From the sequence record OZ346212.1: a stretch of DNA of 64,000 nt. One strand, 5' to 3'. The notes below the pieces were generated by a model that ran no database searches, was not told the DNA's origin, and saw only the letters and a list, made by a program, of their open reading frames with translations. A program made the translations under genes and the position numbers. The stretch is from a phage. Below are positions 5,900 to 63,955 of the stretch, piece by piece (the first letter of the stretch is position 1; the number at the start of each line of letters is the position of its first letter).

Positions 5900-6271
5900 A
5901 TGTTAGTAAAAGGTACTCACACAGTCAAACAACGTATCGAAGTTGAGATCGATGACTGCGAGCTGAAGCATATTTTACGGTCATGTTCCAACGTTTTGCT
6001 CCTTAGTATTCTCCAGGAGCGAGCGGAGAACGAGTTCTTAAATGCACTGGCAGGCCGCCCTGGTGATTTCTGTGTGCGTAAGCGTGGTGACAACAAGTCA
6101 TGGCTGTGGGAGATAGACGCAGAATGGGATTACCATAAAAATGAGGGTATAGATGAACCTATTCGTGAATTGACGGACAACGAGGTTCAGATGTACAATG
6201 AAGTTTGTCAGTGGGCAAAAAGTCAACAAACTTATCTTGATCCTTGGTGGATGATCGAAAATAGTCGTTGA
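5900..6271 (+). CDS. hypothetical protein
   Basis: ORF track; start moved to ATG 5900 after RBS AGAGGAGG. Confidence 0.5.
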   Translation: MLVKGTHTVKQRIEVEIDDCELKHILRSCSNVLLLSILQERAENEFLNALAGRPGDFCVRKRGDNKSWLWEIDAEWDYHKNEGIDEPIRELTDNEVQMYNEVCQWAKSQQTYLDPWWMIENSR

Positions 6272-6296
6272 CAGGAAGTAAGATTAGATATAAGAT
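6268..6296 (+). promoter_or_regulatory. sigma70-like promoter (TTGACA-N17-TAAGAT)
   Basis: Hexamers read directly from sequence. Confidence 0.5.
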
Positions 6297-6347
6297 GCTT
6301 CACACAAACAGAGCGTTGATTGTTTAACACTTAAGGAGACCGCTAAG

Positions 6348-6602
6348 ATGAAAATTACTCTGAAGCCAGAATGCGTTGAAAATGACCGAGCTTTTAAAGA
6401 TTGCACAATCGGTGCAATTTATGAAGCAGAGTTTTGTGAGAACCCTTTGGTAAAAGCCCTTCTGGAAGAAGGAGCTCCTCTATCACAGGAAGAGCTTGAT
6501 GAGTTGGAAAACTCAGCACAGTGCCTTACCTTTAAAGATGATGAAGGAGACTCTGTCTGGTGCACTGTTAATGAAGTAGTTTTTGTAAAACCTGAACATT
6601 AA
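6348..6602 (+). CDS. hypothetical protein (paralog of 6666..6938)
   Basis: RBS TAAGGAGA; shares KP-Y/CVE-D-AF-DCT pattern with next gene. Confidence 0.55.
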   Translation: MKITLKPECVENDRAFKDCTIGAIYEAEFCENPLVKALLEEGAPLSQEELDELENSAQCLTFKDDEGDSVWCTVNEVVFVKPEH

Positions 6603-60696: not shown

Positions 60697-61047
60697 ATGA
60701 AAGATGGGGATAAGCTGCTATATCTTAAAGTCCCCCTTGAAATACTATCTATGTCAAAAGTTTTGAATGACACAACTGGGGAGGTTGTTGTTCTTGACTT
60801 GTATGACAAGATCGTATACTGCTACCTGCACAACTGGTATAAGCTTGGAGGAAATTCACGCTTCACACCAAGCACAAGGAAAATTGCAGCAGATGTTGGG
60901 ATAAAGAAAACAAAAGCAGCAGCGTGCGTTAAAACTTTAGAATGTGCAGGAGTGGTTGAAACATCCACACAAGGGAGAGGTAAAAGATGCACATTTTCCA
61001 AAGTTTTGCCACCAGAAGAAGTTATTCGGATGTCAACAACTGGTTAG
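60697..61047 (+). CDS. HTH DNA-binding protein (possible initiator/regulator)
   Basis: RBS AAGGAGA; helix-turn-helix-like STRKIAADVGIKKTKAAACVKTLECAGVVE. Confidence 0.5.
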   Translation: MKDGDKLLYLKVPLEILSMSKVLNDTTGEVVVLDLYDKIVYCYLHNWYKLGGNSRFTPSTRKIAADVGIKKTKAAACVKTLECAGVVETSTQGRGKRCTFSKVLPPEEVIRMSTTG

Positions 61048-61122: not shown

Positions 61123-61203
61123 TGTCCGTGATACGGACACTACTGTCCGTCACGCGGACACATCTGCCCGTAATACGGACACTAACTGTCCGTGATACGG
61201 ACA
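61123..61203. promoter_or_regulatory. array of four 17-bp palindromic sites (TGTCCGTgatACGGACA) at 21-22 bp phasing
   Basis: Sites at 61123, 61144, 61165, 61187; followed by a ~120-bp AT-rich tract. Confidence 0.65.
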
Positions 61204-61329: not shown

Positions 61330-61600
61330 ACTTACTATGGGCAGTGTCGGCCCTTCATTGGCACTCGCCTACGAGGGGGCGAGATGCCGGGCCTCCTTGG
61401 CGCACACAATAACAGAAGTTCATACATGCAGGTCTGTTAACATGTGTGGGAGCGAAGCGATAGCGCAGGCCAAAGGCCGAGCACTGATGTGGACCACCGA
61501 CGAAAGCTTGCCAGCGCCGTAAGGAGTCGGTTGAGAGTCTCCCGCGCGAGCTTGGATGAAGTTTATGTGTGGAAACTGACAAGAAGGCCCCTAAATCGCT
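61330..61600. ncRNA. GC-rich island, candidate structured RNA
   Basis: Local GC jump; only overlapping both-strand ORFs without RBS; several short hairpins. Confidence 0.25.
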
Positions 61601-62562: not shown

Positions 62563-62805
62563 ATGTTTAAGGTTAAGCTCGTTTTTCGTTCCATGAATGA
62601 GGATTATTTAGAAGATGAAGGTGAATTTCGTGCACTGGATGATGCAATAGATTTTGCCAACGACTTAGCTTGTATGAATACGGGTTATGGGCTATGCTGT
62701 TGGGATGGTGGTGTTCAGATCGGTGATAGCAAGATCTTCTACTTCTACCCTGAGCCTGATAACAAACAAATTAAGTATGTTTTATTTATTTGTGCTTTAC
62801 AATGA
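62563..62805 (+). CDS. hypothetical protein
   Basis: ORF track. Confidence 0.45.
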   Translation: MFKVKLVFRSMNEDYLEDEGEFRALDDAIDFANDLACMNTGYGLCCWDGGVQIGDSKIFYFYPEPDNKQIKYVLFICALQ

Positions 62806-62829
62806 GGTTGTTTTCGTGTATCATGATGA

Positions 62830-63092
62830 ATATCCAATTTAAAGATGAATTTGATGGCTTTATCTCCGGATGCTTTGAAACAGGGTTCGGAGAAGGCTGA
62901 GTTCCCCTTAGAGGGCTTGATAGTGCACCACACTTAAAATGGTAGGGGCAGCCAGCACATGACGATGTGACCCCAGCCAACCTGTAATAAGGTCGAGCCA
63001 AAGTGCGGTAATGGGCTCTGGTAACCCACTTGTTGGGTCTTGCTGGTCCAGGACGCTGGACAAGTCGCAGGGAATACCACCCTGCGGCGAAC
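62830..63092. ncRNA. GC-rich island, candidate structured RNA
   Basis: GC-rich, overlapping short ORFs on both strands, no RBS. Confidence 0.2.
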
Positions 63093-63121
63093 TTGACAAT
63101 CAGTATTTGCTATGATAAAAT
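63093..63121 (+). promoter_or_regulatory. sigma70-like promoter (TTGACA-N17-TAAAAT)
   Basis: Read from sequence. Confidence 0.55.
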
Positions 63122-63149: not shown

Positions 63150-63488
63150 ATGGCGGATACAACTAAAAAGCGTCGCCGTAGAGGCAGACCTCTGAAAGAG
63201 GAGTCCAACGCCATTCAGCTAGAGAAGAACATCCTTGATATGAAGGAATCTTTTATAGCGATGGTTCCAGAAGCTCACAAAGTTTTAAGAGAGCTGATGT
63301 TGGACCCGAAAACCAAACAAAATATTCGTCAAAGCATTGCAGAGTATGTTCTTGATAAGGCAGACCGAATGCAGGAAGAATATGATGAGATGTTTGGTGA
63401 AGAGGAAGAGGTGGTAGTAGAAGAGGCTGAAAAACCAGCACCTTTTATGCCATTCACCACAGAAATACAGCCTGTTGGCAATAGTTAA
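63150..63488 (+). CDS. hypothetical protein with basic N-terminus
   Basis: Start moved to ATG 63150 after RBS GGAGGA; KKRRRRGRP then acidic tail. Confidence 0.5.
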   Translation: MADTTKKRRRRGRPLKEESNAIQLEKNILDMKESFIAMVPEAHKVLRELMLDPKTKQNIRQSIAEYVLDKADRMQEEYDEMFGEEEEVVVEEAEKPAPFMPFTTEIQPVGNS

Positions 63489-63584: not shown

Positions 63585-63659
63585 GCCCTGTTAGCTTAGT
63601 GGATAAAGCAGCGGCCTTCTAAGCCGTTGACACTGGTTCGAGTCCAGTACGGGGTGCCA
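63585..63659 (+). tRNA. tRNA-Arg (anticodon TCT)
   Basis: Cloverleaf folded by hand: acceptor GCCCTGT/ACGGGGT, D-stem GCTT/AAGC, anticodon loop CTTCTAA, T-loop TTCGAGT, encoded CCA. Confidence 0.8.
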
Positions 63660-63663
63660 AATT

Positions 63664-63750
63664 GGGGAGTTATCCCGTAGAGGTAGCGGTGTAGACTGTA
63701 AATCTATTGTCATTGCGACTCGGGTGGTTCGACTCCACCACTCCCCACCA
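63664..63750 (+). tRNA. tRNA-Tyr (anticodon GTA)
   Basis: Acceptor GGGGAGT/ACTCCCC, anticodon loop CTGTAAA, long variable arm, T-loop TTCGACT, encoded CCA. Confidence 0.8.
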
Positions 63751-63864
63751 AATTTATATTTTTAGATGCATAAATAATACAGATAATGGCATTGATATTT
63801 ATCGTCGTTTATACTAGTCACTAACTGCTCGAAAATCAGTGTCATTATCAGTATTATTTATAAA

Positions 63865-63955
63865 GGAGGGTAGGGAGCAATGGTGCTCAATCGGTCTTGA
63901 AAACCGTCCCGTTGAGGATGACTCGATGATGGTTCGATTCCATTACTCTCCGCCA
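63865..63955 (+). tRNA. tRNA-Ser (anticodon TGA)
   Basis: Acceptor GGAGGGT/ACTCTCC, anticodon loop CTTGAAA, long variable arm, T-loop TTCGATT, encoded CCA. Confidence 0.7.

Follow-up and report, generated by a model that had tools for sequence, protein, structure and literature searches.

Among the structured RNAs carried by phages, the ROOL and GOLLD RNAs are 500–800 nucleotides (nt) long, have no assigned function, and are often found beside transfer RNA (tRNA) genes in phages and prophages; they occur mainly in Firmicutes and the prophages of these bacteria, and they have families in Rfam. Phage phiTE, which we take to be a relative of the rV5-like phages, encodes pseudo-ToxI, a small folded RNA that acts as a decoy and neutralises a host factor. 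In phage T4, the RNAs rnaC (species 1) and rnaD (species 2) are small stable RNAs, ∼120–140 nt long and non-coding; their genes are in the tRNA region, they are co-transcribed and processed with tRNAs, and their function is unknown (PMC3014915, PMC9697503). A 2010 review of post-transcriptional control in T4 noted that no riboswitch or trans-acting small RNA had been functionally characterised in this phage, and that related genomes might suggest candidates (PMC3014915). Here we describe a short GC-rich island, at positions 62830–63092, in a 64,000-nt stretch of phage DNA (record OZ346212.1; this whole stretch is referred to as the window), which is that of an rV5-like Vequintavirus. The island very probably specifies a structured RNA that is functional and whose family is not in Rfam 15. 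Its conserved element is also a T4 candidate of the kind that the review foresaw, though T4 is among the most thoroughly studied of all viruses.

A conserved three-way junction

The island has a conserved core of 57 nt that folds as a three-way junction. Compensatory changes maintain this fold in over 10 phage lineages, which have no other relationship in the sequences around the core. A covariance model of the core, R1, built from other phage lineages, gave one match in the 64-kb window (62969–63025, 73.1 bits, E 9e-21), and all 10 pairs of the model form when the window core is aligned to it. The parts of the core are as follows.

62969–63025, plus strand: conserved core, three-way junction, from the R1 match and covariation
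62976–62979 with 63012 and 63014–63016, plus strand: helix PJ, with G63013 bulged, from covariation
62980–62983 with 62990–62993, plus strand: helix P2, 4 base pairs (ACCU/AGGU), from R1
62984–62989, plus strand: hexaloop of P2, GUAAUA, GNRA-like, with the family consensus GURRNA
62994–62996, plus strand: junction strand J2/3, CGA, with the family pattern C-R-R
62997–62998 with 63005–63006, plus strand: helix P3, GC/GC, from R1
63003–63011, plus strand: GTGCGGTAA, comprising the 3′ side of the P3 region (63003–63006) and then GGUAA
63007–63011, plus strand: conserved junction strand GGUAA

In the predicted model, PJ is stacked directly on P2, which is followed by C-R-R, the short P3, and GGUAA. 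PJ is formed by the four nucleotides 5′ of P2, which pair with the nucleotide after GGUAA and, beyond the bulged G, with the next three nucleotides.

Support for this fold comes from two alignments. Alignment A3 contains 35 distinct 57-nt cores, is ungapped, and is independent of R1. One long-range pairing register fits all lineages in it, with 97.1% of cells paired (23–39% in slid registers), and its covariation score is 0.339 compared with 0.076 in shuffles, none of 500 reaching the observed value. Alignment A4, which is fitted to the model, consists of 82 matches realigned with R1 and representing 56 distinct sequences. Here 96.4% of cells are paired (22–40% in slid registers), compensatory double changes are seen in seven of the 10 pairs, and on five measures none of 500 shuffles equalled the real alignment. 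Two pairs of PJ illustrate the range of changes among the 56 sequences: pair 11–44 occurs as AU (29), UA (8), CG (6), GC (6), and UG (6), and pair 10–46 as CG (36), GC (9), UA (6), AU (2), and GU (1), with no mismatches at either. For the other two helices covariation is provided by divergent members, with P2 as GCCA/UGGU in the uncultured phage L042 and as GCCU/AGGC in a tandem second copy of the core in contig L038, and P3 as GU/AC in this same second copy. The helix covariation of the element is comparable to the support behind curated RNA families. G.U pairs are frequent, one G is bulged, and the element always has the same orientation as its neighbouring genes, which together indicate an RNA read from the plus strand and not a DNA element.

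The first model of the core, in which a local helix GAGCC/GGCUC closed a loop of GUGCGGUAA, was discarded because the register of this helix differs between lineages; PJ, with its single covarying register, replaced it. Half-pattern scans and BLAST found few natural variants of the core, with limited variation. At the site of GTGCGGTAA, which occurs only once in the window, the natural variants are GCUGGUAA, GCGGGUAA, GCGGAUAA, and GCGAUAA.

Distribution among phages and bacteria

In a sensitive blastn search, the whole island was found only in Vequintavirus (119 records). A block of 43 nt within it, at 62973–63015, was found in ∼870 further records, mostly at 88–97% identity and chiefly T4-like, and nothing else aligned. 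For the full 57-nt core, identity in the T4-like genomes is ∼90–95%. The T4-like carriers are phages of Escherichia, Shigella, Klebsiella, Yersinia, Salmonella, and Serratia. Pattern scans, which covered IMG/VR and metagenomes, located the core in T4-like types A, B, and C and in rV5-like phages, and three T4-like type C contigs (L038, L040, and L080) have a tandem second copy. It is also present in a diverged rV5-like lineage known from metagenomes only (L034, L061, and L067); for the L067 type, no relative turned up in the phage collection at E<=1e-10. Further carriers are the 46-kb Klebsiella siphophages related to KP591P1, DP01, and ZCKP8, the 44-kb EcoPhCCP1-like coliphages, and uncultured phages of 39–96 kb (L035, L042, L048, L050, L082, L084, L093, L096, and L097). 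The sequences that flank the core have no detectable similarity between lineages.

The core pattern had no matches in 185,579 bacterial and archaeal species genomes (one genome each), and the island had no blastn match in 5,426 complete Escherichia coli genomes. These results show the element to be phage-borne, and its carriers are phages of the Enterobacterales, apparently virulent ones. Mimicry of a host sequence was considered and rejected on the same searches, in which the only exception was one plasmid record. This sole plasmid match (CP057073.1, 100737–100995) covers the whole island at 96.5% identity; the record is predicted to be non-mobilizable and, at 137.6 kb, has the size of an rV5-like genome, so that what is entered there as an E. 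coli plasmid is probably the genome of such a phage.

The element in T4

In T4-like phages, the conserved block is flanked by vs.8 on one side and by denV, or else a gene for an internal protein, on the other, and it occupies the gap that separates them. A search of T4 from 61 to 75 kb with R1, with filters off, gave the match upstream of vs.8 at 71.7 bits and nothing else at E<0.5.

NC_000866 64850–64906, minus strand: the T4 equivalent of the core, upstream of vs.8

This T4 core is ∼6 kb from the T4 tRNA cluster. The vs.8 coding sequence (CDS) of the T4 RefSeq record (219 amino acids; NC_000866 64253–64912, which is L088 3254–3913) includes an N-terminal extension of 40 codons that covers the core, and a form of vs.8 with 179 amino acids is annotated in RB18. 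Among T4-like phages, the ATG of vs.8 is at a distance from the core that can be 0, 1, or 2 modulo 3, and in most cases a stop closes the frame after a few codons, so the extension in T4 is an annotation artefact. The element is hidden in the T4 reference by a mis-extended open reading frame (ORF), and elsewhere it is unannotated or lies under short hypothetical ORFs. These findings correct the annotation of T4 vs.8 and of the small hypothetical ORFs in Vequintavirus and EcoPhCCP1-like records.

Genomic context in the window

A stretch of 1 kb around the island is 95–100% identical to 121 phage records, rV5 among them. In the rV5 record, the island sits between ORF75 (window 62563–62805) and the promoter P74, and nothing is annotated inside it; a few other records, such as LL12 and slur16, have short hypothetical CDSs there. 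P74, which forms the 3′ boundary of the island, serves ORF74 (63150–63488) and a tRNA cluster, and ORF75, P74, ORF74, and the tRNA cluster are all on the plus strand, like the island RNA. The GC content is 51.3% in 62830–63092 and 55.8% in 62903–63092, compared with 42.8% for the window, which places the island at the 99th percentile of 263-nt windows; only a second island at 61330–61600 (island 1) is richer. An earlier note, made from the sequence alone, had described 62830–63092 as GC-rich, with ORFs on both strands, and as ending at a TTGACA-N17-TAAAAT promoter. Its account of the composition agrees with these values, there are short ORFs of 30–71 amino acids on both strands, and the promoter, at 63093–63121, is P74 of the rV5 record. 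The suspicion of a structured RNA, also raised there, has been substantiated by covariation over many phage lineages. None of the small ORFs of the island is conserved, and the 30-amino-acid plus-strand ORF at 62845 is cut to 6 codons in the L061/L067 lineage.

The note further gave the two islands the same signature. This holds for their composition, and not for kinship: R1 has no match in island 1, and island 1 is confined to Vequintavirus. Island 1 has the highest GC content of any 263-nt stretch of the window (56%) and is kept in 119 Vequintavirus records at ∼89–99.7% identity. It has no convincing match in Rfam, its minimum free energy (MFE) z-score is −2.0, and rV5 has a 56-amino-acid ORF78 annotated there. 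Island 1 may be a second, lineage-specific non-coding RNA; that it is a paralogue was rejected on the two grounds just given. Nearby, an array of 15-bp palindromes at 61124–61202 (GTCCGTGATACGGAC twice and GTCCGTCACGCGGAC) lies directly 3′ of a gene for a putative GntR-like regulator (60697–61047), and these are probably its operator sites. Just outside the window, the large terminase gene of rV5 (DQ832317 58027–60872; L001 6002–7001) is annotated as three joined pieces, which suggests intervening sequences, either introns or inteins.

Peripheral elements of the rV5 form

Outside the core, the features of the island and its immediate surroundings are these.

62796–62824, plus strand: candidate sigma-70 promoter TTTACA-N17-TATCAT, 10/12 match, predicted start near 62831
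62856–62898, plus strand: Vequintavirus-specific 5′ hairpin, UCUCCGGAU / GUUCGGAGA, closed by GGCUU/AGGCU, from the MFE fold
62904–62944, plus strand: module M (CCCCUUAGAGGGCUUGAUAGUGCACCACACUUAAAAUGGUA), a lineage-specific 5′ domain with a small hairpin AGUG/CACU, from comparison of the rV5 and L034 types
62945–62974, plus strand: hairpin H1, with outer helix GGGG/CCCC (62945–62948 with 62971–62974), inner helix CACAU/AUGUG (62956–62960 with 62965–62969), and a 5′ internal loop (62949–62955)
63018–63022, plus strand: putative pseudoknot 3′ strand CUGGU, just 3′ of PJ, predicted to pair with GCCAG at 62951–62955 in the internal loop of H1
63024–63038, plus strand: peripheral hairpin ACCC/GGGU, from folding
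63039–63064, plus strand: hairpin CUU..GUCCA-GGACGC-UGGAC..AAG, with GGA in its loop, from folding
63065–63087, plus strand: terminal 8-bp hairpin UCGCAGGG-AAUACCA-CCCUGCGG, without a U-tract, from folding
63093–63121, plus strand: promoter P74, TTGACA-N17-TAAAAT, 11/12 match with an extended −10, from the rV5 GenBank annotation
63585–63955, plus strand: cluster of tRNA-Arg, tRNA-Tyr, and tRNA-Ser, from ARAGORN, 560 nt downstream of the core

Variation among Vequintavirus isolates is consistent with these structures. Of 26 distinct substitutions, 17 are at unpaired positions and six at paired positions with the pair kept; the remaining three apparent pair breaks are due to an indel, which displaces the pseudoknot strand among the aligned sequences. 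In the 5′ hairpin, three substitutions all keep pairs, and in L034-type phages the position of this hairpin is occupied by a promoter. Module M is near-invariant between the rV5 and L034 types, although the adjoining H1 has wholly diverged, and in the L034 type there is a second, diverged copy of module M 3′ of the core. A long-range helix proposed by RNAalifold, GGCUUG (in module M) with CGAGCC, is invariant in all eight sequences, and lineages without module M keep CGAGCC; it was left outside the model. The structures of module M and of the 3′ hairpins are drawn from few, closely related sequences.

In almost all lineages a hairpin adjoins the core on its 5′ side, and the sequence of this hairpin differs from one lineage to the next. 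Equivalents of H1 include GGAAC/GUUCC, and pairs of variants such as GGGAA/UUCCC and GGGAG/CUCCC, GAAUG/CAUUC and GAGUG/CACUC, and GAGGG/CCCUC and GCGGG/CCCGC. The divergence of the peripheral helices with compensation is evidence of long-term selection rather than recent transfer. Complementarity of the pseudoknot strands is likewise kept with other sequences, as GUGAGGG/CCCUUAC in L034, UGAGG/CCUCA in L067, and both CUCCGG/CCGGAG and UUCCGG/CCGGAA in the EcoPhCCP1 type. Cognate duplexes of loop and tail are better than all or nearly all non-cognate ones in the rV5-type, diverged rV5-like, and EcoPhCCP1-like groups, and this advantage is weaker in Klebsiella phages and L084. The pattern supports a pseudoknot in the rV5 form, and not a universal one.

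On the 3′ side, the hairpin at 63024–63038 is probably dispensable because it is deleted in one natural isolate (L077). The hairpin at 63039–63064 is the positional counterpart of GCCA-AGGAA-UGGC in T4-like phages, and its substitution A63060G keeps the pair as U.G. The terminal hairpin at 63065–63087 could possibly serve as a protective 3′ end after processing. GGA occurs in or at the loop of 3′-domain hairpins in rV5 (GUCCA-GGACGC-UGGAC at 63046–63061; CAGGG-AAUACCA at 63069–63075), in T4-like phages (GCCA-AGGAA-UGGC, for example L002 1571–1583), and in L034 (GCUGG-GGACGGA-CCAGC). These hairpins resemble CsrA-binding hairpins, and the likeness could be due to chance.

Promoters, processing, and linkage to tRNA genes

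The candidate promoter at 62796–62824 would give the RNA its own 5′ end. A stronger promoter, TTGACA-N17-TATACT, is located 8–10 nt upstream of module M in the L034/L061/L067 lineage, and in the L034 type the next promoter follows directly after the element. No terminator-like site was found on the plus strand between 61000 and 64000, and the island hairpins do not have the form of an intrinsic terminator. In L035, L082, and L096, an intrinsic terminator closes the element. Complementary arms of ∼19 bp bracket it in the Klebsiella siphophages, and these look like double-strand-specific processing stems. At L029 (reverse strand, 6270–6580) and related Klebsiella loci, the long arms CACAACAGGTAATGRCAYT ... 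AGTGYYATTTCCGTTGTG flank successive modules beside tRNA genes, the element included.

The element is on the same strand as tRNA genes, at distances of 34–1200 nt, in at least nine lineages: the rV5 and L034 types, Klebsiella phages, L084, L035, L050, L042, L096, and L097. It lies within a tRNA cluster in L042, L063, and L084, and the T4-like and EcoPhCCP1-like loci are exceptions to this linkage. Its recurrence within the tRNA clusters of phages suggests a connection with the contest between phage and host over tRNAs and translation. In some clusters beside the element (L031 9535–9610; L059 4505–4594; L084 3587–3669) one tRNA has a CUA, amber-reading, anticodon, and ARAGORN assigns four-base anticodons, gtac and ctgg, to two others; these are possible suppressor or frameshift tRNAs. 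Searches of Pfam and PHROGs with the flanking proteins gave only families of unknown function, unrelated between lineages, and a functional link through neighbouring proteins was rejected on these grounds.

In EcoPhCCP1 (PQ384582; L051 ∼1550–1680) and in L052, L066, and L074, a TTGACA...TACTTA promoter is found immediately after the element. The predicted transcript in these phages is ∼70 nt long and C/U-rich, has a strong intrinsic terminator at its end, and contains CACCUCCU, which is identical to the anti-Shine-Dalgarno end of 16S ribosomal RNA. It may be a second small RNA gene.

Known RNA families and alternative explanations

Known identities for the island were sought in Rfam and with ARAGORN. 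Searches of the whole 64 kb, of 3 kb and 341 nt around the island, and of four T4-like loci gave no Rfam match to the island at the gathering threshold or at E<=10, and ARAGORN found neither transfer-messenger RNA (tmRNA) nor tRNA in it, the three tRNAs of the window all being outside. The earlier note had proposed an Rfam scan including the RNase P and tmRNA models, since GTGCGGTAA seemed to it to resemble a piece of RNase P RNA. This segment does lie within the most conserved strand of the element, and its supposed resemblance has no counterpart in Rfam. RNase P RNA (RF00010, RF00011, and relatives) was rejected, as no model matched and the island is 263 nt and the core 57 nt compared with ∼300–400 nt; tmRNA was rejected on both searches, and a tRNA or tRNA-like RNA (RF00005) on the lack of a cloverleaf by ARAGORN or Rfam. 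Models of the hammerhead, twister, twister-sister, pistol, hatchet, and HDV ribozymes gave no match at E<=10 in rV5 or T4-like loci, and known riboswitch aptamer models gave none. Full-text literature searches, whose scope excludes the 10,006 candidates catalogued as structured RNAs of viruses in PMC10690425, gave no account of the RNA. That the island is a piece of RNase P RNA or tmRNA, or a version of either that has diverged, might have been suggested by the tRNA genes nearby, and by the 9-mer GUGCGGUAA, which presumably also occurs in E. coli RNase P RNA. This reading is effectively refuted: RNase P, tmRNA, and tRNA-like models do not match at any threshold, the 57-nt core has no equivalents of P4 or of CR-I to CR-V, and nothing similar is present in the E. 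coli chromosome. There is similarly only a very slight chance that a short ORF on either strand is a real gene. ORFs of 30–71 amino acids do exist on both strands, and CDSs have been called in some GenBank records (LL12 and slur16, and the long vs.8 of T4), but in related lineages the ORFs are broken or missing, the T4-like frame relative to vs.8 varies and is mostly closed, and the variation is that of covarying RNA helices and not a third-codon-position pattern.

Among readings that accept a conserved element, a role at the level of DNA is highly improbable, whether as a protein-binding site, an UP-like element for P74, a recombination or homing signal, or an accident of composition. In three lineages the element directly adjoins a strong promoter at its −35 box, and a near-identical 43-nt block in unrelated phages could reflect horizontal transfer, but G.U pairs would be A.C mismatches on the other strand, the bulged G and pseudoknot are meaningless in duplex DNA, and no promoter follows the element in T4-like phages and tRNA clusters. 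A cis-acting leader is a less remote explanation, although still an unlikely one; here the core would bind a metabolite, ion, or protein, in the manner of a riboswitch, and control the downstream gene (vs.8, or ORF74 and the tRNAs). Aptamers typically have a highly conserved core at a junction and a periphery that varies, tandem copies as in L038, L040, and L080 are known for some riboswitches, the order in L035 is element, terminator, ribosome-binding site, gene, and in T4-like phages neither promoter nor terminator separates the element from the vs.8 start, 60–100 nt away. Against such a leader, downstream genes are unrelated between lineages and in several of them the neighbours are tRNAs rather than ORFs; in the rV5, L034, and EcoPhCCP1 types the next gene is separated from the element by a strong promoter; and neither alternative pairing with a ribosome-binding site or terminator nor a match to a known riboswitch family was seen. 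Small ribozymes are known from phages, and a new self-cleaving ribozyme or processing signal might cut polycistronic early or tRNA transcripts. The element is small, pseudoknotted, built on a conserved junction core, and found in the phage tRNA and early operons whose transcripts need cutting. We nevertheless consider this improbable, as no known self-cleaving model matches at E<=10, and flanking processing stems or tRNAs, where present, already explain release. The junction strands, of 0–1, 3, and 5–7 nt, are in the opposite cyclic order to those of the hammerhead, and the sequences differ.

Proposed role and significance

The overall explanation that we favour is that the island is the gene for a structured non-coding RNA of ∼190–260 nt, belonging to a previously unannotated family in phages of the Enterobacterales. 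Given a functional RNA, we favour, with a probability of roughly 0.6, a free-standing, stable molecule that would be released from early or tRNA transcripts. Such an RNA would be made early from sigma-70 promoters, as part of a phage module of tRNAs and small RNAs, and would be released by the same processing that matures neighbouring tRNAs or, in other lineages, by flanking stems or terminators. The folded core might then bind a conserved host component, speculatively a protein or an RNA that belongs either to a defence system or to the machinery of translation or of tRNAs, with the lineage-specific periphery (module M, H1, the pseudoknot, and the 3′ hairpins) serving to stabilise the fold. 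Binding of a host component is taken as the working mechanism because ∼40 nt are near-constant in unrelated phages that share only their host group.

Several observations weigh against this explanation. The idea of a host component is a speculation from distribution alone, and promoter use, the ends of the RNA, and its stability are deduced from sequence. No terminator follows the island in rV5, so a longer transcript of which the RNA forms the 5′ portion is equally conceivable. The position of the element in T4-like phages, always 60–100 nt before vs.8, also fits a cis-acting leader, and in types A and B a pseudoknot was rejected, since cognate duplexes are no better than non-cognate ones. 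Because the patterns used to gather homologues hold part of the core fixed, some positions appear invariant partly as a result of the search itself. The folding energy of single sequences is unremarkable (z −1.3 to −2.5) and was not used as evidence.

The family is present in nearly 1,000 sequenced phage genomes of unrelated lineages and is absent from bacterial genomes. A bolder proposal, which we put forward tentatively, is that the core represents a functional class of RNA that is new, carried by nearly all T-even phages (T4 itself among them), by rV5-like phages, and by other enterobacterial phages, and that it could act as a new ribozyme, a ligand sensor, or a decoy that neutralises a conserved host factor. 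If true, T4 would have in it the first of its small RNAs with a defined function, and an RNA decoy against, for example, a defence that targets tRNAs or translation would explain why the element is retained beside tRNA genes in unrelated phages.

Comparison with known systems

The element resembles riboswitch aptamers and small ribozymes in its compact junction, near-invariant unpaired nucleotides, covarying helices, GNRA-like loop, and pseudoknot. It differs from them in that no curated class matches, and no expression platform, cleavage site, or consistent downstream gene was identified. With bacterial RNase P RNA it has in common a link to tRNA genes, whereas its size, helices, and conserved regions are all different and no model matches. 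Compared with ROOL and GOLLD, the present RNA is a 57-nt core within 100–260 nt, is found in enterobacterial phages, and has no match in Rfam. The comparison with pseudo-ToxI is one of functional analogy only, as there is no repeat array here and no bacterial or plasmid sequence to mimic. Like rnaC and rnaD of T4, the RNA is phage-encoded, non-coding, and arranged near tRNA genes. It is not homologous to them, R1 having no significant match in either, and the new family is far more widespread, extending across T4-like, rV5-like, siphophage, and uncultured lineages.

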